Source: a virus
Taxonomy: Duplodnaviria; Heunggongvirae; Uroviricota; Caudoviricetes
Direction: 5' to 3' (one strand)
Virus record (IMG/VR): IMGVR_UViG_3300034102_002177
Length of the DNA stretch: 64,000 bases
Positions 20,786 through 57,011 of this stretch are shown here, piece after piece. Position 1 is the first letter of the stretch, and every line of letters starts with the position of its first letter. The position numbers and the translations under genes are program-made. Under the pieces are notes generated by a model. The model saw only the letters and a program-made list of their open reading frames with translations, searched no databases and was not told the origin of the DNA.

Positions 20786-20959
20786 ATGGAAACTTTAGAA
20801 AAAATTAAAACGTTGACAGAAGAATTAAATGTTGATGTAACTAAATTCTACGGTGGTAATAAAAGTGCTGGAACACGTGCTAGAAAAACATCACAAGAAT
20901 TGAAAGCGTTGTTACAAACACTTAGAGGTGAGATTTTGGAAACAAGAAAAAATGACTAA
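20786..20959 (+). CDS. Histone H1-like (Hc1/Bacteroidetes histone-like) small DNA-binding protein. Below the ORF-track length cutoff
   Basis: 57-aa ORF translating to ...KFYGGNKSAGTRARKTSQELKALLQTLRGEIL, matching the GNKAAGTRARKASLEL core of bacterial H1-like proteins. Confidence 0.5.
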   Translation: METLEKIKTLTEELNVDVTKFYGGNKSAGTRARKTSQELKALLQTLRGEILETRKND

Positions 20960-21140
20960 TATTAATACAATATATTTATTTGTTTTTGTTTTCTCGGCAA
21001 TCTTATTGGTGAGAACAACGTTCAAATTTATTATCTCCTTATTACAAACAAATCCTGAAAGAATGGTTTTAAGTAGTAAGGAGATTTTATTCAACGGTTT
21101 AGCATTAAGTTATATAATAACATATTTAATACAAGTATAA
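20952..21140 (+). CDS. Small hydrophobic membrane protein
   Basis: MTNINTIYLFVFVFSAILLV TM segment. Confidence 0.3.
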   Translation: MTNINTIYLFVFVFSAILLVRTTFKFIISLLQTNPERMVLSSKEILFNGLALSYIITYLIQV

Positions 21141-21578
21141 ATGAGCTTATTTAAGGAATTTACAATATTATTCCCATATTTACAATCGGTTAGGAAATTA
21201 AAGACATACTTATCGTTTGATATTGAATTTCCCGATACTTGGAAATTACCTAAAAAATATGTGAATGAAGAAAAAGTGGTTGAAAATGATAAATCAAAAC
21301 AAGGGTTTAGATTCTTTTCATTTGTTTCAGAATTTGATGAAAAATCAGTTGATGAGATTATATCAAACATTAAAAATATAATTGCATATAATAAGGAAAG
21401 AGAAGAAAAGGAAAAATTATTCCAAGTAAAGGTGGATGAACTTAAAAAGATGTTTGAAAAAGAAAAGTTAGATGATCTACAAGCATTAAAATTTGAAATC
21501 ATCGAAGAAAAAATTATGTTAGATGACACAGAAGAAACCATCAAGCCGGTTGGAGGGAATGCAACAATGGCTAAATAA
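21141..21578 (+). CDS. Hypothetical coiled-coil protein
   Basis: 145-aa ORF. Confidence 0.45.
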   Translation: MSLFKEFTILFPYLQSVRKLKTYLSFDIEFPDTWKLPKKYVNEEKVVENDKSKQGFRFFSFVSEFDEKSVDEIISNIKNIIAYNKEREEKEKLFQVKVDELKKMFEKEKLDDLQALKFEIIEEKIMLDDTEETIKPVGGNATMAK

Positions 21579-21695
21579 TGAAATTGAAAAAGACCAACTT
21601 GATTTGATAAACGAAAAAAATCGTTTCATTAATCAAATTAAAAAAATTAATAAAGAAGATATTATTCCCGTTAAAAAGAAAATAAAACTAACCAT

Positions 21696-22016
21696 ATGGC
21701 AGAAGATCAAAAAAGTATTGATGGGATAATTGAAAAGTTAGCAATGATAACAGACGCGACTCAAACACTATTTCCAAATGGTAAAAGTGCTATAGTCCTT
21801 GAGTTACCTTTTGATGACTTTAAAAAAGTGCAATCAAATTTTAGGCAAATAGATCAAGGTTTTAAACAATTTAAAATTGATCTATCCGGTGTTGAAGTTA
21901 TTTTTATTTTAGATGGGGAATTTAAAATTGTTGAACCACCAAAAGAAATTAAAAAACAAGGGTTTTTTTCTAAAGTACTATCTCTTATACGTGGTAAATC
22001 TACGGTAAAGAACTGA
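21696..22016 (+). CDS. Hypothetical protein
   Basis: 106-aa ORF. Confidence 0.4.
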   Translation: MAEDQKSIDGIIEKLAMITDATQTLFPNGKSAIVLELPFDDFKKVQSNFRQIDQGFKQFKIDLSGVEVIFILDGEFKIVEPPKEIKKQGFFSKVLSLIRGKSTVKN

Positions 22017-22613
22017 TTTAGAATAACCATTTTCTGACAAAAGATCGTACATATATTTCTTTTGTTCTTTTGAAGAATCTTTAACTAAAAGACAATCAAT
22101 CCTTCCCTCGTTTAACATATGGGAAGAAAGACAATCCATTAACCGATCACAATCATCCTCACTCTTAAGTGAAAAAAGAAATATCTTATCATCGTTTTGT
22201 ATAACAATTTTATTGTTAAGTTTAGATACTAATTTAACTCCAACTTTAGGTAAGTATTGTTTCAATAATGTAGGAACGGTTATCTTCTTTGATTTATTAA
22301 GATCATATATTAATTCTTCCTTATTATATTGATTAATAACCGTGATGTTAAAATCAGGATCATCAAGATCAATTTTAATTTGTCTACCAAATTGGTCTCT
22401 TACAAAATAAGGTCTGTGAGCAATTACTCGTTCCAGAAAACCAATTTCATATTCACACGGTTTACCATTCTCCGTTTTCATTCCAAATATAACCGATTGA
22501 CTTTCCTTAACTAAATTATCATAAAATTTTTTAGCCCTATCAAATGTCTTAAATTTCTTGATAATTTTCTTTTTTGTTTTATTTTTAAACAATACGATTA
22601 TATAGTTATCCAT
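21978..22613 (-). CDS. Hypothetical protein, divergent from dnaJ. Start taken at MDNY
   Basis: Minus-strand ORF. The N-terminal 33 codons of the track ORF are hydrophobic junk. Confidence 0.45.
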   Translation of the reverse strand: MDNYIIVLFKNKTKKKIIKKFKTFDRAKKFYDNLVKESQSVIFGMKTENGKPCEYEIGFLERVIAHRPYFVRDQFGRQIKIDLDDPDFNITVINQYNKEELIYDLNKSKKITVPTLLKQYLPKVGVKLVSKLNNKIVIQNDDKIFLFSLKSEDDCDRLMDCLSSHMLNEGRIDCLLVKDSSKEQKKYMYDLLSENGYSKSVLYRRFTTYKR

Positions 22614-22664
22614 TTTGATTATTATATATCTGTTAAATATAAGTGTAAATAAGTTAAAATAAAT

Positions 22665-23594
22665 ATGGAAGATTATTATAGTGTTTTGGGGGTTAATGAA
22701 AGTGCGACCCAAGAGGAGATTAAAAGAGAATATAGAAAGTTAGTAAAAGAGAACCATCCTGATAAAGGAGGGGATGAAGAGAAGTTTAAAAAAATCTCAA
22801 CGGCTTATGATACAATAGGTGACGAAACTAAACGTAGGCAGTACGATCAACAAAAAAACAATCCATTTGGTAACATGGGTGGATTTGGTGGAGCATCTAT
22901 GGAAGAAATGATGAACAGTATGTTTGGTGGTAATCGTAGACAACAAACTAGAGTTCACGATACTGTTATTGATGTTCATATTGGTGTGATAGAATCTTAT
23001 ATGGGTGGAAAGAAAACAATGACATATAATAGAAAGGATAAATGTAATCCTTGTAATGGAACAGGTGGTGAAAAGAAAGTATGTCACACTTGTGGAGGAC
23101 AAGGATATACAGTTAAACAAATGGGTTCAGGTATGTTCATTCAAATTGTACAGGTTGCTTGTGGAACTTGTAATGGTGTTGGAAAAATAACAACCGCCGC
23201 TTGTTATGCTTGCGGTGGACAAGGGGCTAAAAACACAATAAACACAATAGAAGTACAATTACCACATGGTATTGATGATGGTCAATTTTTAAGGTTACAA
23301 GGACTTGGTGATTACAGAAATGGGGGTTACGGTAATTTAGTTGTGAGAATAAGAACGATAAATGAGGGAAATTTTGAAAAGGATGGACCTAATTTAATAT
23401 ATAATGCATTTTTAAATATTGGAGATTTTCAAAAAGGGGATTTTGAGGTACCTCATCCCGATGGATCAATAAGTATTAAGTTTCCTAATAATATAGATAC
23501 CTCAATGCCGTTAAGAGTTAAGGGTAAAGGGTTCAAATATCAACCACAAGGTGATTTATTAATTAATCAATATTTAAAATATAATAGAGGTTAG
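22665..23594 (+). CDS. dnaJ: DnaJ (Hsp40) type-I co-chaperone
   Basis: J-domain with HPD (ENHPDKGG), G/F-rich linker, four CxxCxGxG zinc repeats. Confidence 0.85.
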   Translation: MEDYYSVLGVNESATQEEIKREYRKLVKENHPDKGGDEEKFKKISTAYDTIGDETKRRQYDQQKNNPFGNMGGFGGASMEEMMNSMFGGNRRQQTRVHDTVIDVHIGVIESYMGGKKTMTYNRKDKCNPCNGTGGEKKVCHTCGGQGYTVKQMGSGMFIQIVQVACGTCNGVGKITTAACYACGGQGAKNTINTIEVQLPHGIDDGQFLRLQGLGDYRNGGYGNLVVRIRTINEGNFEKDGPNLIYNAFLNIGDFQKGDFEVPHPDGSISIKFPNNIDTSMPLRVKGKGFKYQPQGDLLINQYLKYNRG

Positions 23595-23833: not shown

Positions 23834-24673
23834 ATGCTATCATATATCGGAGGTAAAAGTAAAATTGGAAAGTGGATTGTCCCTTTCTATGATAAAAATA
23901 TGGAAACATATCTTGAAACATTTGGAGGTATGTTTTGGTGTTTTTATAACATGGATTTAAAACAATTTCCCAATTTAAATAAAGTTGTGTATAACGACTT
24001 TAACCCACTCAACCACAATTTATTTAAGTGTGTTCAAAACCCAACTGAATTATTAAGGTCAATCAACTCAATTGACTGTCAAAAATTTGGTAATGAGGTA
24101 ACACCTGAAATATATCGTGAACAATTTGTTTCTTTCCAAAGTGAGTTATTTAATGACGGATTCAAAATTGATGGAGTTGATTATGATGCTGCGGCTAAAT
24201 ATGTTTACGTGTTAACTCAGGTTTTTAGTGGGTCAAAACCAGAAACGTCAAAATTTATTGACTTAAAAGGAAAATATAAGTCAAAATACCTTACCTTTAG
24301 AGACAAGTTAATGAAACCTGATTGGGTAGATCATTTCTTAAAGATTACAGATGTTGAAAACATGGATTTTGCGGATGTAATCAATAAGTACGACTCACCA
24401 TCAACATACATTTACTTGGACCCGCCTTATTGGAAAACTGAGAACTACTACTCCAACCACGACTTTGATCGTGACGATCATGAGCGTTTAGCAAATGTGT
24501 TAGATGAGGTTAAAGGTAAGTTTTCATTGTCTTACTATGACTTTGACTTACTTCGTGAATGGTTCCCTGAGGATAAATATACTTGGGTTAGAAAAGAGTT
24601 TGCAAAAGCGGCGGCAGCTAAGAAAGGGGAGAAACAAAATATGGGTGAAGAGTTACTTATAATGAATTACTAA
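23834..24673 (+). CDS. Dam-like N6-adenine DNA methyltransferase (D12 class)
   Basis: N-terminal SYIGGKSK, catalytic motif IV YLDPPYW. Confidence 0.7.
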   Translation: MLSYIGGKSKIGKWIVPFYDKNMETYLETFGGMFWCFYNMDLKQFPNLNKVVYNDFNPLNHNLFKCVQNPTELLRSINSIDCQKFGNEVTPEIYREQFVSFQSELFNDGFKIDGVDYDAAAKYVYVLTQVFSGSKPETSKFIDLKGKYKSKYLTFRDKLMKPDWVDHFLKITDVENMDFADVINKYDSPSTYIYLDPPYWKTENYYSNHDFDRDDHERLANVLDEVKGKFSLSYYDFDLLREWFPEDKYTWVRKEFAKAAAAKKGEKQNMGEELLIMNY

Positions 24674-24714: not shown

Positions 24715-26778
24715 ATGGAATTAGTAAGAATTTTATCAAAAGTTATTAAAGAAAACGTAAATATTAAAAAAATATTATTAGAATATCCCGAATCAACGGT
24801 TAAAAAACTATTGGATAAGTTTTCTGGAGAAACTGATGATACTGAGGATGAAATCAAGAAAACAATATCTGATTTTGAAAGATTTAAAGGTGGTTTTGCT
24901 ATAGATGAAAAAAATGAACTTAAACAACTTAACGACGAGTTAAAAACTTTAGAACCGTCTTCTCAAGAGTATATAGATTTACAAAATAGAATTCGTGATT
25001 TAAACAAAAGAGTACAAGATACCTTAGACATATTCAAGTACGACTATGAGAGTTTAAAAAATCTGACCGCAGATAAATCCACAAAACAAAAAACCAAAAA
25101 AGATCTTGAAAGTATAGCTCAAGAATTTGTTACCAAACATAAAGGTGCTGACTTACAATTAGTGAAAACAAATATTAAAAAATATTTTGAGTTAAAAACT
25201 TTGTTCCCTGAACAAAAATTATTCAAAAGAGAGATAACTGAATTAACACCATCTCAGTTGAGTGATTTAGTTGGTAAATTCTTTTCTAAATTTAATGAAA
25301 GAGGGGAAAATGAGTTAACAAAAAGGATGACGGAAAAGTTTTCTAAAGAAAATCCGGATGATGATCCACTTACCGTAATATTACCAAGGGTTAAAAGATT
25401 TGTACATCACTTTGAATTAATTCCATTAAACGCTAAATTAAGTGCGTTTATGACATTTGATGACTTTGAACATTTAGTTGATGGTTACACACCAATGGGT
25501 GAAGATGAATATAGTTTACCTGAAATTGATTTAGATGACGTTGATATTGCGTATGAAGATGATGACATATTAATTTTTGCTCCTGATGAAAAACAAAAAT
25601 GTATTAACATTAGAAAAAAACACGCTCCTGATAGAAAATGGTGTACATCTTGGGAAGGATCAAGTAATTACTACTACAATTATAGATTAAATCAAAACTT
25701 AACATTATATTATGTTATTAGTAAGAATTTACCTGAATCTGATGTGAACTATGCGGTTGTTGTTCTTGTTGATAGATGGGGAGGAATGAGATTGGCGGAT
25801 GGTACCAATTCAGGTAAATATGCTGGTGGACAAGAAATTGATTGGTCTGAAATTATTAGAAAGGTCCCTACATTACGAGATAAGAAAGAATATCTTGAAC
25901 CAAAACCATTTAGTAATGAGGATCAAGAAAAAATGCAGAGATACAAATCTTATAACTTAAAAACTGATGACCCAATACAAGAGTTAGGTAGTGTTGAAGA
26001 AGTTGAATTATGGATAGAATTAAGAGGTCCTGACTTTAGTCATATGAGTAATGGTGATGTAATATTTGGTAAATTACCTGAAGAATTACAAAGAAAATAT
26101 ATTGGTTTAGGAACTGAGTTAAGTGGTGGGATGGTTAAAGTCCTTAAAGGTGGGGCACTAGGTTATTATGTGTCAAAGAAAAAAGAGAAGTTACTTACAA
26201 AGACATTAAGTCAGTTAACTTCAAGTGATATTGAAACAATTAAGACCTTAGAAATGAGACCTTATTTAAGAGAGTTAAAAAGAAAATTCTCTAAGGAGTT
26301 AGTTTCTAAGGATATGGGATCATATGTTCAATTAGAATACCCTAAAGATGATGCGTCTAAATATGTTGCTCTATTTGGTTTTGAGGAATATTTTGATTCT
26401 ATTCCTGATAATGTTGAATTTATTAACATAGAGAATAAATCAAATGATGTGATTGCGGAGAAACTACCTGAATCAATAGGAAGATTTACTGAACTTAAAA
26501 CATTGGTAATTGATAATTATATTAAATCAATACCTGAAAGTATTGGAAATTGTAGACAATTGTCATTCTTAAATTTAACTAATAATAGTCAATTGGATAA
26601 ATTGCCGGGATCTATTTCTAAATTAACTTGTTTGGAGTTCTTCTCAATTATGGGATCAGATCCAAACATTAAAATACCTAAAAAATTAAAGGATTATATG
26701 ACACCGGATGAAGATTTTTTCTTACTACACTTCCCTGAAAATATGAAAAAACACTGTACCGGAATGGTAGGGTTCTAA
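24715..26778 (+). CDS. Member of the KWCT-core paralog family fused to C-terminal leucine-rich repeats
   Basis: Core DDDILIFAP...RKWCTSWEG...LTLYYVISKN aligns with the 41903, 47763 and 55853 proteins. C-terminal LPESIGRFTELKTLVIDNYIKSIPESIGNCRQLSFLNLTNN are LRRs. Confidence 0.6.
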   Translation: MELVRILSKVIKENVNIKKILLEYPESTVKKLLDKFSGETDDTEDEIKKTISDFERFKGGFAIDEKNELKQLNDELKTLEPSSQEYIDLQNRIRDLNKRVQDTLDIFKYDYESLKNLTADKSTKQKTKKDLESIAQEFVTKHKGADLQLVKTNIKKYFELKTLFPEQKLFKREITELTPSQLSDLVGKFFSKFNERGENELTKRMTEKFSKENPDDDPLTVILPRVKRFVHHFELIPLNAKLSAFMTFDDFEHLVDGYTPMGEDEYSLPEIDLDDVDIAYEDDDILIFAPDEKQKCINIRKKHAPDRKWCTSWEGSSNYYYNYRLNQNLTLYYVISKNLPESDVNYAVVVLVDRWGGMRLADGTNSGKYAGGQEIDWSEIIRKVPTLRDKKEYLEPKPFSNEDQEKMQRYKSYNLKTDDPIQELGSVEEVELWIELRGPDFSHMSNGDVIFGKLPEELQRKYIGLGTELSGGMVKVLKGGALGYYVSKKKEKLLTKTLSQLTSSDIETIKTLEMRPYLRELKRKFSKELVSKDMGSYVQLEYPKDDASKYVALFGFEEYFDSIPDNVEFINIENKSNDVIAEKLPESIGRFTELKTLVIDNYIKSIPESIGNCRQLSFLNLTNNSQLDKLPGSISKLTCLEFFSIMGSDPNIKIPKKLKDYMTPDEDFFLLHFPENMKKHCTGMVGF

Positions 26779-27157: not shown

Positions 27158-27913
27158 ATGATTTACACACCAGAATTAATTAAACAAGTGGCACCATCGG
27201 TGTTCGCAACAGAACCTTCAAGTAAATTAACTAACAAATATTCTTTTGTACCTACGGATCAGGTAATTGAATATTTTGTAAGAGAAGGTTGGGATGTTTC
27301 TTCGGCACATCAAACGGGTAGAGGTATCCATGCTTTACATGAAGTTAAATTCCGTAACAAACAATTACCGGCAGTTGGTGATACCTTAGTTGAGGCGATT
27401 GTTCGTAACTCACACAATGGTACTTCAGGGTTTTCTTTGGGGGCTGGTCTTTATCGTTTGGTTTGTAGTAATGGTCTTGTTGTCCCTACGTCTGTTTCTG
27501 AAAGATTTAATATTCGTCATAAGGCATTTACTTTAGATGAGGTTAAAGAATTGACTGAAAGTTTTAGTAAGAAATTACCTAAGATTGAACATTCTGTTGG
27601 TAGAATGATGGCAAGAACATTAACAATTGATGAGAAGATTGATTTTGTTGAAAAATCCTCTAAGTTTAGATGGTCAATGGGATCTGTACCTGCGGAGTTA
27701 AATATTGAAGAAATATTAACACCTTTAAGACACGAAGATTCTGGAGATGACCTTTGGTCAACATTCAATATGGTTCAGGAAAAATTTGTCCGAGGGGGTA
27801 TTGAGTATAAGACAAAAACAGGTCGTAGATCAAGTTTAAGAAGTTTGAAAAACATATCATCTTTGAATTATGTTAACACAAAACTTTGGGAAACTGCTGA
27901 ATCGATGTTGTAA
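27158..27913 (+). CDS. Hypothetical protein
   Basis: 251-aa ORF with its own promoter and terminator. Confidence 0.5.
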   Translation: MIYTPELIKQVAPSVFATEPSSKLTNKYSFVPTDQVIEYFVREGWDVSSAHQTGRGIHALHEVKFRNKQLPAVGDTLVEAIVRNSHNGTSGFSLGAGLYRLVCSNGLVVPTSVSERFNIRHKAFTLDEVKELTESFSKKLPKIEHSVGRMMARTLTIDEKIDFVEKSSKFRWSMGSVPAELNIEEILTPLRHEDSGDDLWSTFNMVQEKFVRGGIEYKTKTGRRSSLRSLKNISSLNYVNTKLWETAESML

Positions 27914-28289: not shown

Positions 28290-28604
28290 ATGGAAATTAC
28301 GAGTGTAGAATTACAAGAAAAAATCAACAAAGGTGAAAAACTTATTATTGAGTTTTGGGCTGAATGGTGTGGGCCATGTAGAATGATGAAACCCATCTTT
28401 GAGAGAATCTCAACTGAAAATACATCTGACGTACAAATGTATACAATGAATGTTGATTTAAATAGAGAAGTTGGGGCATCGTTAGGTATTAGAAGTATCC
28501 CTACGATTAAGGTAATCAATTCTGGTGAAGTTATTGACACAAAAGTTGGTGTTCTTAACGAAGGACAACTAAAAGGTATGTTAACTGAATTAATTAATGG
28601 ATAA
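28290..28604 (+). CDS. trxA: Thioredoxin
   Basis: WAEWCGPCRMMKP active site. Confidence 0.85.
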   Translation: MEITSVELQEKINKGEKLIIEFWAEWCGPCRMMKPIFERISTENTSDVQMYTMNVDLNREVGASLGIRSIPTIKVINSGEVIDTKVGVLNEGQLKGMLTELING

Positions 28605-28881
28605 GGTAGCGGTTCTTTTTACGATGAAACAATGTCCTTTTTGTCATATGTTAAAAGAAATGTTAGACAAAGAGGGTGTTGAATATGTTGATCGTGACAT
28701 ACACGAATATGAGGAAGAGTATAACTTATTTGTTGAAGTAACAGAAAATGAGTTTGTTCCTGCGTTTATGTTGATTGAATCACCTGAGAATAATCCTGTT
28801 ACTAGATTATTTGCCCCTGACCGAGATTTTGAAGATATCAATCAGGGTGCTAAAATCATTAAAGAATTCTTTGAAAGATAG
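28597..28881 (+). CDS. Glutaredoxin-like (NrdH/Grx) redoxin
   Basis: N-terminal MKQCPFCHMLK CxxC in glutaredoxin context. Overlaps trx by 8 nt. Confidence 0.65.
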   Translation: MDKVAVLFTMKQCPFCHMLKEMLDKEGVEYVDRDIHEYEEEYNLFVEVTENEFVPAFMLIESPENNPVTRLFAPDRDFEDINQGAKIIKEFFER

Positions 28882-28882: not shown

Positions 28883-29578
28883 TTAGAAGACAATAACGTC
28901 TTCCAATCTATCTTGGATAAGATATGGTTTTTCTCCCATAGGATCTAATATATCTTGAATTATATTATATCCATCCACTTTAGTTTTAAAGTCCTCTAAA
29001 TCAAAGTCAAATAGGTCTAATATTAAAGATTTAATAATATTTTTATCTAATCCTTTATCTGTCACTATTTTAATTTTAAAATCTTCATTGGAATCAATTT
29101 TCTTACTAAAGAAAAAGTGAACCTCATCAGTCATTATTGTGCTATAAACTTGGTTAAACATATAGTGGGTGTAGTAAACCATTAATCTACCACAGTTTAA
29201 ACTATGACCGTAGGGGAATTCAGAATTGATTGATATTTCACTTAAAGGTTCAGGTTCTTCAACGAACGGGTGTTTATTAACTTTAACCCATCCTTTCTCA
29301 ATGTTACCAATTTCTTGGTTATATTTGATAATATCAATAACGTTAAGTGATTTTATTTCTAATGACGTTAAGATGTCTTGAAATTTTTCCGTAAATTCAT
29401 CTCTTATTAAATTTACATCTAAAAATGTTTCACTTGTGGTTATACCATTTATAACATAAAAAGATCCCACATCTGAAACTTGTATTATTGAATTTTCATT
29501 CTTATCAATTTTAGATAAAATGAAATCGGCAAATAAATTAACAATGCCTCTTTTTGAATTTTTATTTATTAATCTCAT
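28883..29578 (-). CDS. Hypothetical protein
   Basis: 231-aa minus-strand ORF. Confidence 0.45.
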   Translation of the reverse strand: MRLINKNSKRGIVNLFADFILSKIDKNENSIIQVSDVGSFYVINGITTSETFLDVNLIRDEFTEKFQDILTSLEIKSLNVIDIIKYNQEIGNIEKGWVKVNKHPFVEEPEPLSEISINSEFPYGHSLNCGRLMVYYTHYMFNQVYSTIMTDEVHFFFSKKIDSNEDFKIKIVTDKGLDKNIIKSLILDLFDFDLEDFKTKVDGYNIIQDILDPMGEKPYLIQDRLEDVIVF

Positions 29579-29639
29579 ACCTTTTTTTTACAATTGATAT
29601 GGATTTTAAATGAATATCTAAATAGTTAATGATTTTTAG

Positions 29640-30725
29640 TTAAATATAATCTGATAACATATCATTTATATTCTTCTCAACTTCACGGTAGTCAGGATAA
29701 TCTGGTATTCTAAAATCTAAGTAATCCATTATTTCCGAATCCATTAAATGTTTAATCATTTCGGTATATGATCCGTGATAGTCAAGGTTATCTTCGTTAT
29801 ATCCTGAACCTTCAAATGAACTAAGAAATCTGTGTACATCATTATAAAAATCTCGTATTTTAATATATGGGGTATAATAAGTTCTATCATTCTTTGTTGA
29901 CTGTTCTTCGGTTATGTCACCAACAAATAATCTTTCTAATTCTGATCTAACATCGTCATAAATTTCACTTTCATAAGCACTGTTATATGAGTTACTGTGT
30001 AGTGAGTACAATTCTTGTTTTAAATCATCAAGATCGTCATTAAGAAGTAGTTTCATTGATTCTTCATCTCTGAGTAATTCACCGACATTTTCCGTTGTAA
30101 TTGTAAATTCTCCCGATTCATTTGAAATACTATCAAAAAATTCAGTTTCATAATCATCAATTGATAAAACCTGATTACCAATACGATCAACTATATAATG
30201 AGAGATAACTTCTAAATTTTCTTTATCTAAAACTTCAATAACATCCCTATAAACATCATTAGTTGTGTCCCAATATGGTTCAAATATATCATCTTCACCT
30301 AAAACTGATTTTGCAACATCACGGGGAGAAGTACTTCTACCATAATCTTTAAAAAATTGAGATAATTCTTCTCGGTCTGTTAAACGAAGGTAATAATCTT
30401 CACCCCTTAGCTCAACGTCTGATAAAAGGTCATCACAAATAAATGACAAAGTTTCTTTTGGATTTTTCTCTAATTTATACAAAAGAAATTTATTTGATGA
30501 TTCGTCTGGAACTGATCTATATTCTAAATTATCTAAAAGACCTAAAGAATCCAAAAATTCCATTTCAGGAAAATCATCTTCCGGTATCTGATTTATATCA
30601 ATTCTATCTAATAAGTTTTTACCTTTTAAAAATTTTAAAAAAGTCGTAATTTTACGATTAAAAATAGGTGATATATCTTCCCAATCACCATCATTAAAAT
30701 TTTGTATAATTTGTCTTAAATCCAT
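29640..30725 (-). CDS. Acidic hypothetical protein
   Basis: 361-aa minus-strand ORF. Confidence 0.45.
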   Translation of the reverse strand: MDLRQIIQNFNDGDWEDISPIFNRKITTFLKFLKGKNLLDRIDINQIPEDDFPEMEFLDSLGLLDNLEYRSVPDESSNKFLLYKLEKNPKETLSFICDDLLSDVELRGEDYYLRLTDREELSQFFKDYGRSTSPRDVAKSVLGEDDIFEPYWDTTNDVYRDVIEVLDKENLEVISHYIVDRIGNQVLSIDDYETEFFDSISNESGEFTITTENVGELLRDEESMKLLLNDDLDDLKQELYSLHSNSYNSAYESEIYDDVRSELERLFVGDITEEQSTKNDRTYYTPYIKIRDFYNDVHRFLSSFEGSGYNEDNLDYHGSYTEMIKHLMDSEIMDYLDFRIPDYPDYREVEKNINDMLSDYI

Positions 30726-30741
30726 ATCTAATTAATAAATA

Positions 30742-30770
30742 TAAAAAAAGGTGGAAAAATAATTCTCCAC
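30742..30770 (-). terminator. Minus-strand intrinsic terminator GGTGGA-N10-TCCACC with a T-run on the minus strand
   Basis: Perfect 6-bp IR. The A-run at 30743-30748 is the T-run on the minus strand. Confidence 0.45.
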
Positions 30771-30793
30771 CTCAACAATTAGCATAACACCTA

Positions 30794-30934
30794 TTACTTA
30801 TTCTTGTAATATTTCTCAACAATTTTTTTCACAGATTCCTGAACCGTAGCATTTTGTGGTGCTGGCTGAGGTTGTGCTTGTGGTTGAGGTGCCGCTTGTG
30901 CTTGATTTTTTTTACATCCGCATCCCATGATCAT
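30794..30934 (-). CDS. Small Cys-rich protein MIMGCGCKKNQAQAAPQPQ...
   Basis: 46-aa ORF followed by its own terminator. Below the track cutoff. Confidence 0.3.
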   Translation of the reverse strand: MIMGCGCKKNQAQAAPQPQAQPQPAPQNATVQESVKKIVEKYYKNK

Positions 30935-30978
30935 TTGTTTTTATTAGGTTTATTTATCTATAAATATCTAAAGATTAT

Positions 30979-30986
30979 TATATTTG
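30979..30986 (+). promoter_or_regulatory. Bacteroidetes-type -7 box TAtaTTTG
   Basis: Exact TAnnTTTG. Implies a TSS near 30993, so the second Met (31012) is the likely start. Confidence 0.45.
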
Positions 30987-31011
30987 TAAAGAATTGAATA
31001 TTTATTATTAT

Positions 31012-32502
31012 ATGTCAAGAATAGTAGAGATAAAGGAAAGTGATTTAGTTGATCTAATAAAAACTATAATATTTGAGGAAACTGAAGATCAAAATGATTA
31101 TTATGATCTTTCACCTGAACAGTATTATAAATTGTTACGATCTGTTAATTATGTGGCTCAGGCAATACCTAAGTTACCAATGTTTAAAGGTAAAAAACTT
31201 AGAGTTAATGGTAATTTAAATTTATCCGATAAACCTATTAAAAGTTTGGGTGAATTATCAATAACTGGACAGTTAGATTTTAGGAATACAAATATAAAAA
31301 GTTTAGAGGGTGTTGAATATGGTGTCCTTGGGACTTATTATGGTACGCCATATTCGGAAGAAATTGAAAGACGTAAAAAACAAAAAGAAAGAGACGATGC
31401 CGATCAGAGAAGAATTGATGATGAGTGGAATTTAAACGATACTGATAATACTGGGGAAATGGCTCATGCGGTATTCCGATTTATGGTTAATGAGGGTGAT
31501 ATTGATGAGTTAGATGAAGATGAAATTGAAGAGTTAAAAAGTTTAGAACAAAAACTAGAGGAACTCCAAGATAGGATTGATGTTGAATCAGATGCTGATG
31601 TGGTTGATGAATTAACAAATGATTATGATGAGTTACAATATGATATTGACGAACTTAAATCTAAAAATAATGATGTTTACGGATTAATTCCAACCGGTTA
31701 TAATCATTATGAGATGGATACATTTAGATCAATTCATGATGATACAAATGGAAATACATATGCGGTTGGTACCGAATACGAAGCGGATAAATCTCTTGAA
31801 ACTTATTATGATGATATGGTGGATGATTTAAGTAATTTTGATAAAAATACTTTATCTTATTATATTGATGGTGATGAGGTGGCTGAATATTTTGAGGAAA
31901 CAATAAGAGAATGGATCTATGATGACCCGGATAATTATGATGTGACAAGATATCTGTCCAAATCTCAAGAAACCGAAATAAAAGAATTAGAGGTTGAGTT
32001 ATTTTTATTAAACTATGGTATTATACCACCATTAGAATTGGTTGTTAACCGAGAAAATAATTGGGAGTACACTGATGGTGTCGGAAATAAAATAAACTTT
32101 ATTTCCAACCAAGACGGTAGTAGTACGGTTTTATTAAATGGGACACCAACTCTCAAGAATCCGGTATATGAAGATATTGATTGGGATGAAATGTCAGAAA
32201 ATATTTCTGAAAGAATTGTTGATATTAATGATGAGATAGAAACAATAAAAGATAATCCGGATGGAGATCTTGATGACAGTACTGTTGAAAGAGAAGTTGA
32301 AGAAAAAATGGATGAAATAAAAGATGATCCAGTTAGATGGTTGGACGACTATGGTATGGAGTATCAACAATTTGTAGATGTGAGAGGTTTAAAGGACCAA
32401 TTAGTAAGTGAATCGGATTATGGTACATTGGCAAGTTATGACGGAACTTATGATGAAATTAGAGTTGATAATACAAACTACGTTGTCTTTAGAATTGACT
32501 AA
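31012..32502 (+). CDS. Large highly acidic protein
   Basis: About 497-aa D/E-rich ORF. Alternative start at 30994. Confidence 0.5.
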   Translation: MSRIVEIKESDLVDLIKTIIFEETEDQNDYYDLSPEQYYKLLRSVNYVAQAIPKLPMFKGKKLRVNGNLNLSDKPIKSLGELSITGQLDFRNTNIKSLEGVEYGVLGTYYGTPYSEEIERRKKQKERDDADQRRIDDEWNLNDTDNTGEMAHAVFRFMVNEGDIDELDEDEIEELKSLEQKLEELQDRIDVESDADVVDELTNDYDELQYDIDELKSKNNDVYGLIPTGYNHYEMDTFRSIHDDTNGNTYAVGTEYEADKSLETYYDDMVDDLSNFDKNTLSYYIDGDEVAEYFEETIREWIYDDPDNYDVTRYLSKSQETEIKELEVELFLLNYGIIPPLELVVNRENNWEYTDGVGNKINFISNQDGSSTVLLNGTPTLKNPVYEDIDWDEMSENISERIVDINDEIETIKDNPDGDLDDSTVEREVEEKMDEIKDDPVRWLDDYGMEYQQFVDVRGLKDQLVSESDYGTLASYDGTYDEIRVDNTNYVVFRID

Positions 32503-32543
32503 TATCTTTACAGAATAGAAAAATATTATTATCTTTATGTGTA

Positions 32544-33326
32544 ATGGGAAGAAAGAAAAAAATAGAGTTTTTAATGAACACCGAGTGGATGTTTGAAAAA
32601 CCTATTGACCAAGAGCACAAAGAATACAAGTTATTATCGTACTTCCAAAAAATGGGAGAAAAATTAGACAACATGGAACTGTATCCAAGTTTCATTGAAT
32701 TATCATTACATTTAGCGAATATCCAAACCTTAATTAAGGATAAGAAAATAATTTATACCGATAAGAAATTTTCAACAATAGACGATGAGTTACTTGTTAA
32801 AGATTTAAAGATCAAAGAAATCCCAACACTGGAAAGTGATGAAATGGGTGAATTTACAAAAATACTTTCGTATAGTGCTCCAAGGATGTTAGAATACTTT
32901 AACATAGCAAAATCTGTTTGGGAAATAGTTTTTGATAGTATTGTTATGAAGTTAAAGAAAAACAAAAGTGAAGTTTTACAAAAAAAAGGTTATTTTTATT
33001 ATATTAATCCTAAAGATGAGATGTATTATGTTTGGGAGTATGATATTAAACCTGTTAATAAAAAATCACCTGAAAGTAAAACTTTAGTGAATTTAATATA
33101 TTCAGATAAAAAAAATAATTTGACAATTACAAAAATTATAAATACATTTAGTCAATGGAACACAGAAAATAAATCAAAGTTACCTCTATTTGAAATGAGT
33201 TGTGAGGGTGAGTTTCCGATTAATGAAACACTTTTACCTCTTTTCAAAAGAAAGTTGATTAGTTATGTAAACCAAGTACAAATGTTGGAAAACTACAAAA
33301 AGAACAAGGAACAATTAAATTCTTAA
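32544..33326 (+). CDS. Hypothetical protein
   Basis: 260-aa ORF. Confidence 0.45.
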   Translation: MGRKKKIEFLMNTEWMFEKPIDQEHKEYKLLSYFQKMGEKLDNMELYPSFIELSLHLANIQTLIKDKKIIYTDKKFSTIDDELLVKDLKIKEIPTLESDEMGEFTKILSYSAPRMLEYFNIAKSVWEIVFDSIVMKLKKNKSEVLQKKGYFYYINPKDEMYYVWEYDIKPVNKKSPESKTLVNLIYSDKKNNLTITKIINTFSQWNTENKSKLPLFEMSCEGEFPINETLLPLFKRKLISYVNQVQMLENYKKNKEQLNS

Positions 33327-33466
33327 TATGGATAAAAATTTTGACAAATTAATTGAAAAATTAATTAAGGATCTACCAAATGATATGGAGTTAGGTAGAG
33401 AAATCAGAAAGGCATATATTAAAAATGTAAAAGAAAAAAAATCCGAAACCCTTAAATCTAATTTAA

Positions 33467-33649
33467 ATGGGATTCAATAAAAGAATTTTCACAAAAGAAC
33501 TTATTATAAGACACATTTATGATATTGAAAGATATCTAAGTGTTGATGCGGCATTTTTGAGAGATGATTTCTCAAGAGATGTTTATAGAATGCATAATGA
33601 GGGAAAATCAAAAGAAGAAATAATAAAATACATAAATGAAAACAAATGA
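33467..33649 (+). CDS. Small hypothetical protein
   Basis: 60-aa ORF abutting glnA-like gene. Confidence 0.3.
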   Translation: MGFNKRIFTKELIIRHIYDIERYLSVDAAFLRDDFSRDVYRMHNEGKSKEEIIKYINENK

Positions 33650-34770
33650 AAATTAAGTTAGAGTATGTTTGGCTTGATGGATACAAACCAGAACCAAACC
33701 TTAGAAGTAAAGTTAAAATTGTTGAAAGTGAAGTTCCTATGGAATTAAAAGATATTCCGGTATGGAATTTTGATGGATCATCCACTTCTCAAGCGGAAAC
33801 AGGTAATTCGGATCGTCTTTTAAAACCTGTTAGACAATATACAACCCATGGATTCCCATTCATAAATGATACTGTGTATGTGTTATGTGAAGTATTAAAT
33901 CCTGATGGTACACCACACGAATCAAATAAAAGATCTCAGATTGGAGATAACTTTGAAGATCTTTGGTTTGGTTTTGAACAAGAATACTTTATTCGTGAAG
34001 AAATTAACGGAAACATTTTAGGACATAAAAGAAACATTCTTAAAGGTCAGGGTGAATATTATTGTGGTGTGGGTCATAATGTTGTTGGTCGTGATTTTGT
34101 TGAAGAACATTTAGAAATGTGTTTAAACTACGGAATTGATATTACCGGTATAAATGCTGAAGTTGCTTTAGGCCAGTGGGAATATCAAGTATTTTCAAAA
34201 GGAAAACATAAAGGAGGAGATGATCTCTGGATGACTCGTTACTTCTTATTTAAGATGGGGGAAAAATACGGATATCATATTGAACTACATCCAAAACCAT
34301 TAACTCACGGAGAATGGAATGGATCAGGACTCCACACAAATTTTTCAACAGATATGATGAGAAACGAGGGGAATGAGAAATATTTTATGGCTTTGTTTAA
34401 TGCATTTGAATCAAGACACCAAGATCATATTAAAGCGTATGGGTCCAACAACAACCTTCGTTTAACTGGTGAGTATGAAACTCAATCAATTGATAAGTTC
34501 AGTTGGGGTGTGTCTGATCGAGGAGCGTCAATTAGAGTTCCACAAGATACCGCAAAAGAATGGAAAGGTTATGTTGAAGATCGTAGACCTGGATCAAACG
34601 CGGATCCATACAAAATTATTCGTGAGATTGTTAAATCATTAGACACCACTAAACAAATCTATGAAATGAAAGATATAATGACTAGATTTGTTGATATGGA
34701 TGGTTTAAGTGGTAAGTACAATGCCATATCAAATGAAGAATTATTAAAAGAATATAGAGAGGAGGAATAA
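33646..34770 (+). CDS. Glutamine synthetase, type II (GSII)
   Basis: N-terminal LEYVWLDG, GFEQEYF, GLHTNFST, RGASIRVP. All are hallmark GSII motifs. Confidence 0.85.
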   Translation: MKIKLEYVWLDGYKPEPNLRSKVKIVESEVPMELKDIPVWNFDGSSTSQAETGNSDRLLKPVRQYTTHGFPFINDTVYVLCEVLNPDGTPHESNKRSQIGDNFEDLWFGFEQEYFIREEINGNILGHKRNILKGQGEYYCGVGHNVVGRDFVEEHLEMCLNYGIDITGINAEVALGQWEYQVFSKGKHKGGDDLWMTRYFLFKMGEKYGYHIELHPKPLTHGEWNGSGLHTNFSTDMMRNEGNEKYFMALFNAFESRHQDHIKAYGSNNNLRLTGEYETQSIDKFSWGVSDRGASIRVPQDTAKEWKGYVEDRRPGSNADPYKIIREIVKSLDTTKQIYEMKDIMTRFVDMDGLSGKYNAISNEELLKEYREEE

Positions 34771-34772
34771 TA

Positions 34773-35057
34773 ATGGATAATTTAAAAGTGTGTTTATGTG
34801 GGGGTACAGGACCTTGTCAGTGTCCTCCACTAAAAGTAGAACAAGTTAACCATCCACTACATTATGGTGGAGTAAACAATCCTTACGAAGCCATCAAGGT
34901 AATAGATGCTTGGGGATTAGGATTTAGTTTAGGTAATACAGTAAAATACATTTCAAGAGCCGGAAAGAAAGATTCGGATAAAGAATTACAAGATTTAAAA
35001 AAGGCATTATGGTACTTACAACACCATATTAAAATGTTAGAAAATCAAAATGGATAA
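34773..35057 (+). CDS. DUF3310-like phage protein
   Basis: HPLHYGG...PYEAIKVIDAWGLGFSLGNTVKYISRAGKK...LKKALWYLQHHI pattern. Confidence 0.45.
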   Translation: MDNLKVCLCGGTGPCQCPPLKVEQVNHPLHYGGVNNPYEAIKVIDAWGLGFSLGNTVKYISRAGKKDSDKELQDLKKALWYLQHHIKMLENQNG

Positions 35058-35370
35058 AAAAACTAAAAAAGTATTAGAAAAAGAGATTGTTGTTTTAGAT
35101 GCGATAACAAGTCCGGGGGAACTTATAAGAGAAACTTTAATTAATTTTACTTGGGGATTATTAGGGAACTCCGTAGTGGTTTTTGTTTCTAAAGAAATGG
35201 ATTTCATGGTTTTAATTAACTATATTTTATACTACATTTTAATATCATATATTGTGAATAGAAAAAAATACGAAACCATGTTAGGTAAGTTTATTGTACT
35301 TCCTGGATCGGCAGCAATCGGTGCTTATACGGGATACAAAATTGCACAATTAATTTCAGGAACATTATGA
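35050..35370 (+). CDS. Small membrane protein
   Basis: Two hydrophobic helices. Confidence 0.4.
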   Translation: MDKKTKKVLEKEIVVLDAITSPGELIRETLINFTWGLLGNSVVVFVSKEMDFMVLINYILYYILISYIVNRKKYETMLGKFIVLPGSAAIGAYTGYKIAQLISGTL

Positions 35371-36305
35371 AAATAGTAGTAACGGGAGGGGCGGGTTTTA
35401 TAGGTTCCGCATTTATAAATCACTTATTAGATAACTTTGAATGTGATGTTCTTTGTATTGATAAACTGACTTATGCTGGTAAAAGAGAAAATATCAAACA
35501 TAATGTTTCGTTTCTACAAAAAGATATTTGTGAGGTGACGGCAGATCAACTTGGTGAATTTGATTATATTGTTCATTTTGCTGCGGAATCTCATGTAGAT
35601 AATTCAATTAAAAATGGGTTACCATTTGTTAGAACTAATGTGGAAGGAACATTCAATTTGTTGGAGATTTCAAGAAAGAATAAAAATCTTAAGAAATTTA
35701 TTCACATCTCAACTGATGAAGTTTATGGGGACATGGATGATCATTTTGCAATAAACCATACTGCAACAGAGGAGAATAAGATTAAACCAAGTTCCTATTA
35801 CTCATCAACTAAGGCAGCTTCTGATATGTTAGTTATTTCCGCAAATAGGACATATGGGTTACCATACTTAATCACAAGAACTTGTAATAATTTTGGGGAA
35901 CATCAATTTGAAGAGAAATTCCTCCCAACAATTACAAGATCAATTAATGAGGGTAACTCAATACCTGTTTATGGTGATGGAAAACAGGTAAGGGAATGGA
36001 TGTATGTGTATGATAATGTAAAAGTAATATGTGACCTAATGTTTGATGATGAGGTTATAAATCAAATTTTTAACATTGGAACACGTTTTAGATTAACTAA
36101 TTTAGATATTATTAAAGAAATAGGTATTATTTTAAATAAAGATGTTAAAATAAAACACGTTGAGGATAGATTAGGTCATGATAAGAAATATGGTTTAAAT
36201 ACCAATAAAATGGATAACTACTATAAAAATAAACATGGACAAATACCTGAATTTTTAAATTTAATAAACTATCTAAAAAAAATTTACGGAAATGAAATGG
36301 GATAG
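35367..36305 (+). CDS. dTDP-glucose 4,6-dehydratase-like (RmlB) NAD-dependent sugar dehydratase/epimerase
   Basis: VTGGAGFIGSAF Rossmann, HFAAESHVDNS, YSSTKAASD (YxxxK). Confidence 0.8.
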   Translation: MKIVVTGGAGFIGSAFINHLLDNFECDVLCIDKLTYAGKRENIKHNVSFLQKDICEVTADQLGEFDYIVHFAAESHVDNSIKNGLPFVRTNVEGTFNLLEISRKNKNLKKFIHISTDEVYGDMDDHFAINHTATEENKIKPSSYYSSTKAASDMLVISANRTYGLPYLITRTCNNFGEHQFEEKFLPTITRSINEGNSIPVYGDGKQVREWMYVYDNVKVICDLMFDDEVINQIFNIGTRFRLTNLDIIKEIGIILNKDVKIKHVEDRLGHDKKYGLNTNKMDNYYKNKHGQIPEFLNLINYLKKIYGNEMG

Positions 36306-41492: not shown

Positions 41493-41900
41493 TTGATTAT
41501 GGAAAAAATATTATATATTGTTCGTGGAATTCCAGGATCCGGTAAATCCACATTTGCCAAATCTTTAGGTGGTACTCACTTTGAAACTGATATGTTTTTT
41601 ATGAAAGACGGTGAGTATAAATTTGATATGTTTAAACTTAAAGAGGCTCATAAATGGTGCCAGGATAGTGTTTATAGTGCAATGCTATTAAATCATACTG
41701 CGTTATTAAACAACGTAATTGTTGTTTCAAACACATTCACTCAAGAATGGGAAATGAAACCATATTTTGAAATGGCGGAATATTTTGAATATAAAATTTT
41801 TTCCATAATTGTGGAAAACAGGCACGGTGGTATTAACGAACATAATGTACCTGAAGAAACATTAACCTCAATGAGAAATCGGTTTGAAATAAATTTGTAG
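41493..41900 (+). CDS. P-loop polynucleotide kinase-like protein (T4 Pnk N-terminal domain-like)
   Basis: LYIVRGIPGSGKSTFAKSL Walker A. Resembles the T4 Pnk N-terminus ILTIGCPGSGKSTWAREF. Confidence 0.6.
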   Translation: MIMEKILYIVRGIPGSGKSTFAKSLGGTHFETDMFFMKDGEYKFDMFKLKEAHKWCQDSVYSAMLLNHTALLNNVIVVSNTFTQEWEMKPYFEMAEYFEYKIFSIIVENRHGGINEHNVPEETLTSMRNRFEINL

Positions 41901-41902
41901 TT

Positions 41903-42817
41903 ATGAGTAGATTAGATAAATTAAAAGAACAACATCCTGAATTAAACATTACAATTATTGATCTTATTGGTATGATAGATCCTACCGATACTTACAAGTA
42001 TTCGGAGTTTCTAATTAAAATTTTGAAAAATTGGTATGATAATATGGACATACGATATGGAATTGGGGTTGATCTTTTTGGTGATGAGAATGTAGAGACC
42101 TTAAATGAGTTTGAAAAACATTGTAAGGCAAAAAGAATTGAAAAAAACGATATTAGTCAACATACCACCTTTATAACTTTACAAAGTGAGGTTAATAAGG
42201 CTAAAGAAATTCTTAGATTGAAAGAGTTAGAAAAACAAACCAAAAAATTACTTGAACACGGAGAATGGTTGGTTATGATACCATTAAGTTATGAAGCGGC
42301 GAAGTTATATGGGGCAAATACTAAATGGTGTATAACTGAATTAAAATATTGGAATAACTATGTTGAGAATTATAAAATTATTTATGTGATCAATAGAAGT
42401 ACGGATGTTAAATACGCTATCTCTAGAGATAAAACGGATAATAAAGATTTAAAAGCGTGGTTGTCTGATGATAGTGAGACAAGTCCATTACTATTAAATA
42501 TACCTCAGGAAATATGGTCGGTGGTAATACCTGAATTACAAAAAGAAGAATCAATATGGGATTTACTACCAGATAATAATAAGATTATTCCACATAATTT
42601 GGGTTCGGATAACATCCTTGATAGAGTGAGAAATTTATTAATCAGCAATAGTACGGGCACAACAAATTTGACCGGAGGTTATATGGGTGACATAAATACT
42701 GATTTCCGCACTGACGCATATAAAACTTACAGTACATATGGTACATATGGAGATGATTTTGAAAAGTATTTAAGAGAATATATGTATACGTCAGATGAAT
42801 CAATTGATTTACCTTAA
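41903..42817 (+). CDS. KWCT-core paralog family protein, copy 1
   Basis: EWLVMIPLSYEAAKLYGANTKWCITE...YKIIYVINRS. Confidence 0.55.
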   Translation: MSRLDKLKEQHPELNITIIDLIGMIDPTDTYKYSEFLIKILKNWYDNMDIRYGIGVDLFGDENVETLNEFEKHCKAKRIEKNDISQHTTFITLQSEVNKAKEILRLKELEKQTKKLLEHGEWLVMIPLSYEAAKLYGANTKWCITELKYWNNYVENYKIIYVINRSTDVKYAISRDKTDNKDLKAWLSDDSETSPLLLNIPQEIWSVVIPELQKEESIWDLLPDNNKIIPHNLGSDNILDRVRNLLISNSTGTTNLTGGYMGDINTDFRTDAYKTYSTYGTYGDDFEKYLREYMYTSDESIDLP

Positions 42818-42828
42818 ATAAAAAGAAT

Positions 42829-43482
42829 ATGAAATTTGATAAAATATTAACAACAGGTAGAGTGTGGGTCACATCGGATCCACATTACAACCATAAAAAC
42901 ATTTGTAGAGGGGTAACGAATTGGAGAACCCAAGATGGTGAGATTCCTATTAATAGTACAAGAGATTTTCACACAATAGATCTAATGAATAATGTTTTAG
43001 TGGATAACATAAACTCAAAAGTTGGACAGAACGACACATTAATTATATTGGGTGATGTTGCGTTCGGTGGTTTTGAAAGTATTAGAATTTTCTTGGATCG
43101 TTTGGTGTGTAAGAATATTCATTTAGTTATGGGTAATCATGATCAACACATAAGAAACAATAGAGATAACATCAAAGATATGTTTTTATCTGTGAGCGAT
43201 TACCTCCAAGTTAATATTGACGGTGCCGATTTTGTTATGACACATTATCCATTTGAAAGTTGGAATGGTCTTAATAAAGGTGTTATACACCTTCACGGAC
43301 ACGTTCACTTACCTGCAAGTAAAAAGTGGGGTAAAGGTAAACGATTAGATGTTGGTGTTGATGGTAACAATCTATCACCATATAGTATAACTGAAATTGT
43401 ACATATGATGGATAAACGAGATATCGTTCCTGAAATGGAAGGTGATCACCATTTAGATGATTTAATTGGGGTTATTGGATAA
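42829..43482 (+). CDS. Calcineurin-like metallophosphoesterase (lambda-PPase or CthPnkp-phosphoesterase type)
   Basis: DPHYNH, ILGDVAFGG, GNHDQ, LHGHVH. Confidence 0.75.
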   Translation: MKFDKILTTGRVWVTSDPHYNHKNICRGVTNWRTQDGEIPINSTRDFHTIDLMNNVLVDNINSKVGQNDTLIILGDVAFGGFESIRIFLDRLVCKNIHLVMGNHDQHIRNNRDNIKDMFLSVSDYLQVNIDGADFVMTHYPFESWNGLNKGVIHLHGHVHLPASKKWGKGKRLDVGVDGNNLSPYSITEIVHMMDKRDIVPEMEGDHHLDDLIGVIG

Positions 43483-56789: not shown

Positions 56790-57011
56790 ATGTTTAAAAC
56801 AGAAAAGTTAGGACTATGGGGAGTCATAATACTAACAACGATCTATCTCTATCTAATCAATTTATATTTTGAATATATCCTTAGTAGAGAGGTGGCAAGT
56901 GAAATCCAAATTGTTGTAAGTTTAGTAGCCTTGGCTTACACAATTTTTCAAGTAAAATTAATAGTAAAAAAGGCAGTTAGTTTATTTAAAAAAGAAGAAA
57001 AAAATGATTAG
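56790..57011 (+). CDS. Small membrane protein
   Basis: Two TM helices. Confidence 0.4.
   Translation: MFKTEKLGLWGVIILTTIYLYLINLYFEYILSREVASEIQIVVSLVALAYTIFQVKLIVKKAVSLFKKEEKND

Follow-up and report, generated by a model that had tools for sequence, protein, structure and literature searches.

The window analysed here, a 64,000-nucleotide stretch of a Caudoviricetes genome (IMG/VR record IMGVR_UViG_3300034102_002177), encodes four proteins, termed P1 to P4, which are true diverged paralogues of one family. All four carry a core of ~130 amino acids (aa) built around an invariant Trp-Cys pair. In P1, the longest copy, this core is followed by C-terminal leucine-rich repeats (LRRs). The family is very large, ancient and essentially phage-restricted, and its core is probably related to the PcfJ domain (PF14284). 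We infer a functional role for the Cys and an effector or adaptor role for the family.

Four diverged paralogues with a Trp-Cys core

The window has a G + C content of ~30%, and its + strand carries most of the open reading frames (ORFs) of at least 80 aa, including all those discussed here. GC skew was positive in every 2-kb interval. All four ORFs lie on this strand, at the coordinates given in an earlier note on this DNA. That note had also described a collinear core in the four proteins, and a MAFFT alignment confirmed it, with the pattern (Y/I)E(D/N)D-hhhh-P-x8-(Y/H)(G/A)-x2-(T/R)KWC(T/I)-x7-9-Y-x7-Y-x-I(N/S)(K/R), in which P, K-W-C, Y, Y and I were, among others, invariant. Pairwise phmmer comparisons among P2, P3 and P4 gave E values between 1e-12 and 3e-23. 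P1, by far the most divergent copy, was not detected by pairwise phmmer against the others. We then used an independent core profile, made from 94 database domains after exclusion of all window sequences. Among the 319 six-frame ORFs searched, it matched exactly P1-P4 (E 1.2e-49, 7.3e-34, 5.3e-27 and, for P1, 2.8e-10), and no fifth copy of the core was found among the window ORFs.

A purely compositional similarity between unrelated ORFs rich in Lys, Tyr and Asn would have undone the claim of a family. The low G + C content of the window is in keeping with such an origin, as is the failure of pairwise comparison to detect the long copy P1. However, a profile free of window sequences matched only four of the 319 ORFs, even the weakest at E 2.8e-10, the motifs were in register with the invariant Trp-Cys, and the fold of the core was predicted with confidence. 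The phmmer pairs and the independent profile confirm homology and refute a compositional artefact, the probability of which we consider negligible.

The motif as worded in the earlier note does not hold in full for P1. There, the PL(S/T)xEAxxKYGAxT part is missing and APDEKQKCINIRKKHAPDR stands in its place. The helix-and-loop segment of P1 reads APDEKQKCINIRKKHAPDRKWCT and not PLSxEASxKYGxGTKWCT. A second independent profile, for the N-terminal region and made from 87 database proteins, matched P3 (E 2e-35), P2 (2e-26) and P4 (1e-5), and did not match P1. The three short copies therefore share their N-termini, as previously noticed, in the form of a helical region of ~135 aa, and the N-terminal half of P1 differs. 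The description of P1 as a copy whose C-terminus was replaced by LRRs was right about the repeats and loose in its wording, because the N-terminus is also longer and different, and a conserved region of ~170 aa separates the core from the repeats.

The LRR module of P1 is real but short. Its repeat, LPESIGxLxxLxxL, is readable directly in the sequence. Pfam LRR_14 matched with an E value of 1.1e-8 (34.7 bits, below the 40-bit cut-off of the scan), and LRR_4, LRR_13 and LRR_8 matched aa 582-657 too. PF23598 is precomputed on an identical database protein (P0121, 687 aa) and on most P1 orthologues. Local matches of ~60-75 residues were found to the LRRs of the Xanthomonas effectors XopAE, XopL and XopAC (E 4e-9 to 8e-7). 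What P1 has in common with these effectors is the principle of linking an LRR for binding to a functional domain of another kind, and the likeness does not extend over the full length: P1 scored 28-36 bits against the NCBIfam families, which have cut-offs of 450-600. Unlike the Xop effectors, P1 lacks a region for a secretion signal and has none of their effector domains, be it E3 ligase, kinase or another, and its repeats are C-terminal to the conserved domain and comprise only ~3-4 units.

More than 110 full-length orthologues of P1 were found, with 49-81% identity and on contigs of up to 290 kb. Over 114 orthologues, aa 281-340 of the core were the best-conserved segment (mean top-residue fraction 0.91-0.94), and W309, C310 and much of the core were invariant. 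The LRR and the C-terminus were the least conserved parts (0.50-0.69). An effector with a changing target would be expected to show this pattern, in which the core is conserved and the binding module evolves faster. P1 further carries a coiled-coil-like insertion of ~40 aa (aa 61-100, positions 24895-25014), gapped in 66-94% of the 114 orthologues. Because of this insertion it is 687 aa long, compared with ~648 aa in the orthologues.

The C-terminal parts of the four proteins differ: acidic or disordered tails in P2 and P3, a helical tail in P4, and the conserved middle region with LRRs in P1. P4 is the only basic copy (isoelectric point, pI, 8.7); the other three are acidic (pI 4.9-5.3). In a full-length model of P3, the helical N-terminal region was moderately confident, and the tail had a predicted local distance difference test score (pLDDT) below 50. 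The stop of P3 (48861-48863) comes nine codons before the end of the otherwise 100% identical database protein P0002 (375 aa), which continues ...GDTLPGLDYEDKQG. P3 therefore has either a premature stop or a strain difference in its disordered tail.

Conservation of the core was determined over 98 diverse domains, with residues numbered as in P3. W170 was present in all 98 domains, C171 in 97, P155 and G165 in 95 each, Y184 in 93, T168 and G188 in 90 each, and K201 and D221 in 89 each; the pair E146-D147 and K196 were strongly conserved too. The signature of the core is the Gly-rich loop YGxGT(K)WC. An AlphaFold2 model of the P3 core, calculated from a diverse alignment of 45 core sequences (A5), reached a pLDDT of 93.7 and a predicted template modelling score of 0.88. 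The core is thus confidently predicted to be a compact alpha/beta domain, with two strands, a helix, the Gly-rich loop, a short helix, a longer helix, three strands and several short helices, in this order. In the model, the Cys is the first residue of the short helix. The core is poor in Cys (median two per domain) and near neutral (median pI 6.8).

No characterised domain had been recognised in these proteins by the earlier note, and database comparisons agree with it. Pfam had no match for the core of any window copy, sequence searches of the PDB with two family profiles and with PcfJ gave no meaningful match, and a fold search with the core gave no convincing one; no nuclease family was matched by sequence or fold. 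P2-P4 matched, over the core, PHROG 17056 and PHROG 28193 (P3, E 4.4e-14 and 1.3e-10; P4, 8.1e-9 and 1.3e-4; P2, 2.1e-6 and 1.2e-4, respectively), and so did multi-copy database members of the family; P1 matched neither. Both PHROGs are labelled 'unknown function', without functional or structural annotation.

Distribution of the family and its probable relation to PcfJ

To determine family size, we ran a 12-sequence core profile with HMMER over the full set of 1.84 billion cluster representatives (50% identity). At E<=1e-3, 7,425 representatives matched; the number fell to 2,703 at E<=1e-10 and to 135 at E<=1e-30. When a profile of the window copies was used in a word-indexed search, 421 matches were obtained, and the 120 listed were all hypothetical proteins without a Pfam domain. 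Most of the 145 listed representatives that were scanned had ~300 aa with the core at residues 130-270, which is the layout of P2-P4, and 27 of them were long ORFs with two to five cores ~500 aa apart. WG beta-repeats were present in at least two of these multi-core ORFs. A Pfam scan of long single-copy members for informative fusions revealed nothing except weak WG repeats. Among the giant ORFs with 2-5 cores were P0241 (1844 aa), P0295 (1972 aa), P0258, P0253 and P0242-P0244. These may represent genuine tandem fusions (polyvalent proteins) or, alternatively, read-through gene calls in recoded genomes.

With the strict core motif YG[AYS][GND]TKWC and confirmation of loci by tblastn, at least 580 loci were found in IMG/VR, on contigs of up to 318 kb. 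In GTDB, with one genome per species, only 2 of 185,579 genomes had the motif, both on contigs of Bacteroidota metagenome-assembled genomes (MAGs), a Chitinophagaceae contig of 28 kb and a Bacteroidia contig of 35 kb. These may be phage contigs binned with their host, and would then be a hint that part of the family has Bacteroidota hosts. As the sole hits in cellular assemblies, they are only a weak echo of the association with Bacteroidetes raised in the earlier note. No Trp-Cys type gene was detected by tblastn in 72,556 plasmids. Among 50,697 GenBank phage records, only jumbo phages had the family: the PA5oct group (~287 kb), Caulobacter phage CcrBL9 (322 kb) and SCTP-2 (440 kb).

The jumbo phage homologues have the same core. 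EST35_0205 of the Pseudomonas phage PA5oct (482 aa) matched the family profile with an E value of 5e-22, and Foldseek recovered the core in the PA5oct, SCTP-2 and CcrBL9 proteins (E 4e-6 to 2e-9). They belong to another subfamily, which has a KxQFHxE...FMD motif after the core strands, and their N-terminus was only marginally similar (E 0.018). PA5oct has one copy, whereas Salicola phage SCTP-2 is multi-copy like the window, with 5-7 places matching by tblastn. No LRR was found in the PA5oct protein (no NCBIfam match) or in the three SCTP-2 copies inspected. In SCTP-2, gp40, gp37 and gp34 lie within 6.3 kb (positions 28901-35224), with an RpoH-like sigma-factor gene interleaved on the opposite strand.

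Of all Pfam families, only PcfJ, with its type protein on the Enterococcus faecalis plasmid pCF10, was matched by two or more of the 45 isolated cores. These matches were weak and came from three cores (best E 0.0056). The family member P0242 reached 27.4 bits against PF14284 (gathering cut-off 25), exactly over one of its cores. For comparison of profiles, pCF10 PcfJ and four further plasmid homologues were collected. The PcfJ profile of 7 Firmicute sequences was assembled from plasmid loci and is shallow, because a homologue search with the C-terminal fragment of PcfJ gave only 20 near-identical Enterococcus fragments. With hhalign, the family profile aligned to pCF10 PcfJ alone with P 0.009 and to the 7-sequence profile with P 4.7e-4. 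Both alignments had the identical register: an acidic residue, a strand, Pro, a helix, a G-x4-(W/H)-C loop, Tyr and a strand ending in Lys or Arg. In pCF10 PcfJ, the motif EG-x4-HC had its G paired with G165 of P3 and its C with C171. In a search with a small PcfJ hidden Markov model, real cores scored up to 17.5 bits, compared with 8.0 bits for the best of 890 shuffles. Finally, BFVD was searched with Foldseek. The first 20 matches were to proteins without characterisation, from SCTP-2, CcrBL9, PA5oct, uncultured large phages and binned Marseillevirus contigs. PcfJ-like proteins followed as the first matches outside the family (probabilities 0.92, 0.96, 0.87 and 0.54; E 0.02-0.5).

Other results speak against this relationship. 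None of the four window proteins matched PcfJ at E<=1, let alone at the Pfam cut-off, the hhalign probability for the 7-sequence profile was only 32%, and the template modelling scores to the PcfJ-like models in BFVD were only 0.43-0.48. The PDB search returned no solved PcfJ structure. Still, four weak lines of evidence are concordant, and jointly they make it probable that the core forms a phage-specific branch that is a distant sister of the PcfJ-like domain. The picture given in the earlier note is modified in this respect: the core is probably PcfJ-like and not an orphan.

Both groups are borne by mobile elements and have no characterised function. They share the order of elements, i.e. 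an acidic residue, strand, Pro, helix, Gly, x4, an aromatic residue or His, Cys, Tyr, Gly and a strand ending in Arg or Lys; the conserved loop Gly and Cys of the family, with the flanking strand-Pro-helix and Tyr-Gly-strand elements, follow the PcfJ order. They differ in their signature, which is (T)KWC(T)A in the Trp-Cys family and HCVG in PcfJ, and in their PHROGs (17056 and 28193 versus 7484, 8470 and 3169). In the proteins examined, a long N-terminal region precedes the PcfJ domain, which is C-terminal or nearly so, whereas the core of the window copies is central. PcfJ-like domains occur in conjugative plasmids and temperate phages. PcfJ-type genes were present in 574 plasmid records, and the Trp-Cys type was found in no plasmid and in large phages instead.

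In the four Firmicute plasmids inspected, the PcfJ gene directly followed a gene annotated in the records as 'Cas9 inhibitor AcrIIA9 family'. In pCF10 (20874-22984), the two genes overlap. The pair looks like a unit of two genes that has been conserved. In the three plasmids other than pCF10, SNF2-related, SprT-like or thermonuclease genes were located one or two genes downstream of PcfJ. Establishment and anti-defence genes keep company of this kind, which is here read from record annotations only. We found no paper assigning a function to PcfJ, and a survey of polyvalent proteins did not mention it.

Candidate roles of the Trp-Cys proteins

The best explanation that we can offer is that these proteins serve the phage as effectors or adaptors and are modular, with a common core centred on the Cys and with variable tails that bind partners; we judge it about as likely to be right as wrong. 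Under this explanation, the core would provide one common activity, centred on the lone conserved Cys. This could be covalent or thiol-dependent chemistry, or the binding of one common ligand or partner. Tails and repeat modules would direct each paralogue to a different partner, which for the LRR copy would be a protein target. Within the infected cell, the proteins would serve as host-directed effectors or as adaptors, and at least some family members may travel in the virion.

The idea that the LRR fusion serves in targeting, already voiced in the earlier note, agrees with the modular architecture. Besides the LRRs of P1, the core is fused to WG repeats and, in one case, occurs in an ankyrin-annotated protein, and such fusions to protein-binding repeats fit an effector with targeting modules. 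Delivery with the virion is suggested by PA5oct, in which EST35_0205 is annotated as a structural protein by electrospray ionisation tandem mass spectrometry (ESI-MS/MS), inside a run of genes with like annotations.

Several observations weigh against an effector or adaptor role. A catalytic constellation around the Cys and Trp, sought on the advice of the earlier note, could not be defined from the conservation of the 98 cores. A Cys-His-Asp triad was ruled out because position 205 varies between His, Tyr and Phe. The invariant Trp-Cys could be purely structural. The conservation pattern of P1 is also compatible with simple relaxed constraint on the repeats. In the window, the family genes lie among auxiliary and metabolic genes and not among virion genes. 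The 93 virion-linked products detected by mass spectrometry in PA5oct include some virion-unrelated enzymes (PMC7318152), so that packaging is suggested but not proven; the PA5oct paper does not discuss the EST35_0205 homologue individually (PMC7318152). PADLOC gave no match for P1-P4, P0242 or pCF10 PcfJ, and our literature search found nothing on the function of the family. The more specific proposal of host takeover or anti-defence, made in the earlier note, is an inference from genomic context, the mass spectrometry of PA5oct and the plasmid company of PcfJ.

Further candidate activities of the core were considered and rejected. A metal cluster is unlikely because the domain is Cys-poor, with one conserved Cys only. 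Nucleic-acid binding as the main role is weakly disfavoured by the near-neutral pI of the core and by the acidic pI of three of the four window proteins.

The proteins might instead be virion components, of the internal head, inner-body or tail accessory type, with the core as an assembly or docking domain and no enzymatic or host-directed role. Jumbo phages often expand virion proteins into paralogue families, and the present family, which is found only in large phages, has several copies per genome and includes EST35_0205, which lies in a run of genes with virion products detected by ESI-MS/MS. However, neither in the window nor in its relatives do the copies lie among morphogenesis genes; they are dispersed among genes for chaperones, redox functions, RNA repair and nucleotide metabolism. 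A near-invariant lone Cys with a Gly-rich loop, kept over thousands of lineages, would be unusual for a purely structural module, and the plasmid relatives of the core have no virion to build. We consider a virion role rather unlikely. Still less probable, in our view, is that each paralogue is a regulator, scaffold or specificity subunit of the adjoining enzyme, with the core and N-terminus docking to a common site and the tail binding the enzyme. The coupling is indeed tight: P2 starts 3 nt past the kinase-like gene, the start of P4 overlaps the end of the cytidylyltransferase-like gene, and P3 abuts the preceding small ORF. The same adjacencies were found in related contigs, but only close relatives were compared (75% identity or orthologous), so that the conserved order may reflect only shared descent. 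The three SCTP-2 copies are among hypothetical genes and a sigma-factor-like gene with no enzymes annotated among them, the PA5oct copy sits among virion genes, and the neighbours of P1 differ between window and relative.

The scattered, multi-copy distribution between conserved genes also recalls selfish genes of the homing-endonuclease type, and the core has an acidic E-D-D cluster and conserved lysines. The copies, however, keep their positions in related phages, and their orthologues extend down to 49-59% identity; such conserved positions argue against a homing-endonuclease-like gene. Sporadic presence and a nuclease domain, both expected of homing endonucleases, were not observed: no nuclease family matched by sequence or fold, and neither the near-neutral core nor the three acidic proteins (pI 4.9-5.3) suits such an enzyme. 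A homing endonuclease is thus largely refuted by synteny and is very improbable.

A bolder version of the effector or adaptor reading can be formulated, although we regard it as doubtful. In this version, the core would be a new Cys-dependent enzyme or covalent-ligand module with a fold absent from solved structures. Jumbo phages, and conjugative plasmids in the case of the PcfJ form, would deliver it into the newly entered cell, where it would disable host immunity or remodel host machinery. The arrays of copies and the fusions to LRR, ankyrin and WG repeats would then be a targeting repertoire, with each copy directed against a different host protein.

It was already known that the family clusters in PHROGs, and PcfJ is a named, uncharacterised Pfam family. 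As far as our searches show, the link between the two, the Trp-Cys signature and the restriction to jumbo phages have not been described, nor have the multi-copy and tandem architectures, the clade-wide LRR fusion, and the confident fold without a solved counterpart. The family comprises thousands of 50%-identity clusters, which places it among the larger domain families of large phages that are wholly uncharacterised. The probable link joins the multi-copy genes of jumbo phages with PcfJ, and one biochemical result for either branch would then annotate both. The LRR copy, which is conserved in its clade and has repeats evolving faster than the core, is a natural entry to a cellular partner. 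Should the core be structural only, it would still serve as a marker domain for jumbo-phage contigs.

Gene neighbourhoods in the window

Related phages have all four copies as fixed genes, in conserved synteny. The expansion of the family, as claimed in the earlier note, is real; its conserved positions in relatives argue against it being recent or local. A 224-kb relative has the order DnaJ, P1 orthologue, two small genes, thioredoxin and glutaredoxin, and the order in the window is the same. In the window, P1 is flanked by a gene for a Dam (D12-class DNA adenine) methyltransferase (23834-24673) and a DUF932 gene (27158-27913). Both are absent there in the 224-kb relative and look like window-specific insertions.

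The presence of enzyme genes next to the copies was confirmed. An AAA_33 kinase-like gene is directly upstream of P2 and a metallophosphoesterase gene downstream, an RNA ligase gene precedes P3, a cytidylyltransferase-like gene precedes P4, and the Dam methylase gene lies upstream of P1. P2-P4 each start within a few bases of the preceding stop. The order around P2 is kept in a related contig, and so is that of RNA ligase, a 90-aa gene, P3 and, further on, Hsp70. Likewise, the cytidylyltransferase-like gene, P4 and, one small gene on, Band_7 have the same order in relatives. The features of the window are listed in Table 1.

Table 1 Features of the four Trp-Cys proteins and of other genes in the window.
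Feature	Position	Strand	Description
P1, 687 aa	24715..26778	+	Divergent Trp-Cys core, conserved middle region, C-terminal leucine-rich repeats
P1 core, aa 274-408	25534..25938	+	Independent profile E 2.8e-10; A5 profile E 2.6e-22
P1 invariant Trp309-Cys310	25639-25644	+	In core
P1 leucine-rich repeats, aa 582-657	26458..26685	+	~3-4 units LPESIGxLxxLxxL; LRR models
P2, 304 aa	41903..42817	+	Shared helical N-terminus, core, acidic Tyr/Thr/Asp-rich tail
P2 core, ~aa 106-229	42218-42589	+	Alignment, profile matches
P3, 366 aa	47763..48863	+	Shared helical N-terminus, core, acidic disordered tail
P3 core, ~aa 132-262	48156-48548	+	Trp170-Cys171 at 48270-48275
P4, 297 aa	55853..56746	+	Shared N-terminal region, core, helical tail
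P4 core, ~aa 100-239	56150-56569	+	Alignment, profile matches
Kinase-like gene, P2 and phosphoesterase region	41493-43482	+	P2 between kinase and phosphoesterase
RNA ligase	46311-47444	+	One gene upstream of P3
DnaJ	22665-23594	+	All three DnaJ domains
Hsp70/DnaK	49508-51364	+	Full-length, 859 bits
Thioredoxin and glutaredoxin	28290-28881	+	Adjacent, just downstream of P1
Glutamine-synthetase-like gene	33646-34770		Auxiliary gene
NAD-dependent epimerase/dehydratase	35367-36305		Auxiliary gene
2OG-Fe(II) oxygenase	54373-54927		Auxiliary gene
Family-9 glycosyltransferases	59293-61136		Two tandem genes, heptosyltransferase-like
SPFH/Band 7 protein	57004-57906		Auxiliary gene

The genes for the AAA_33 kinase-like protein (135 aa), the calcineurin-like metallophosphoesterase (217 aa) and the RNA ligase with a PHA02142 OB domain (377 aa) look like a split RNA-repair set.

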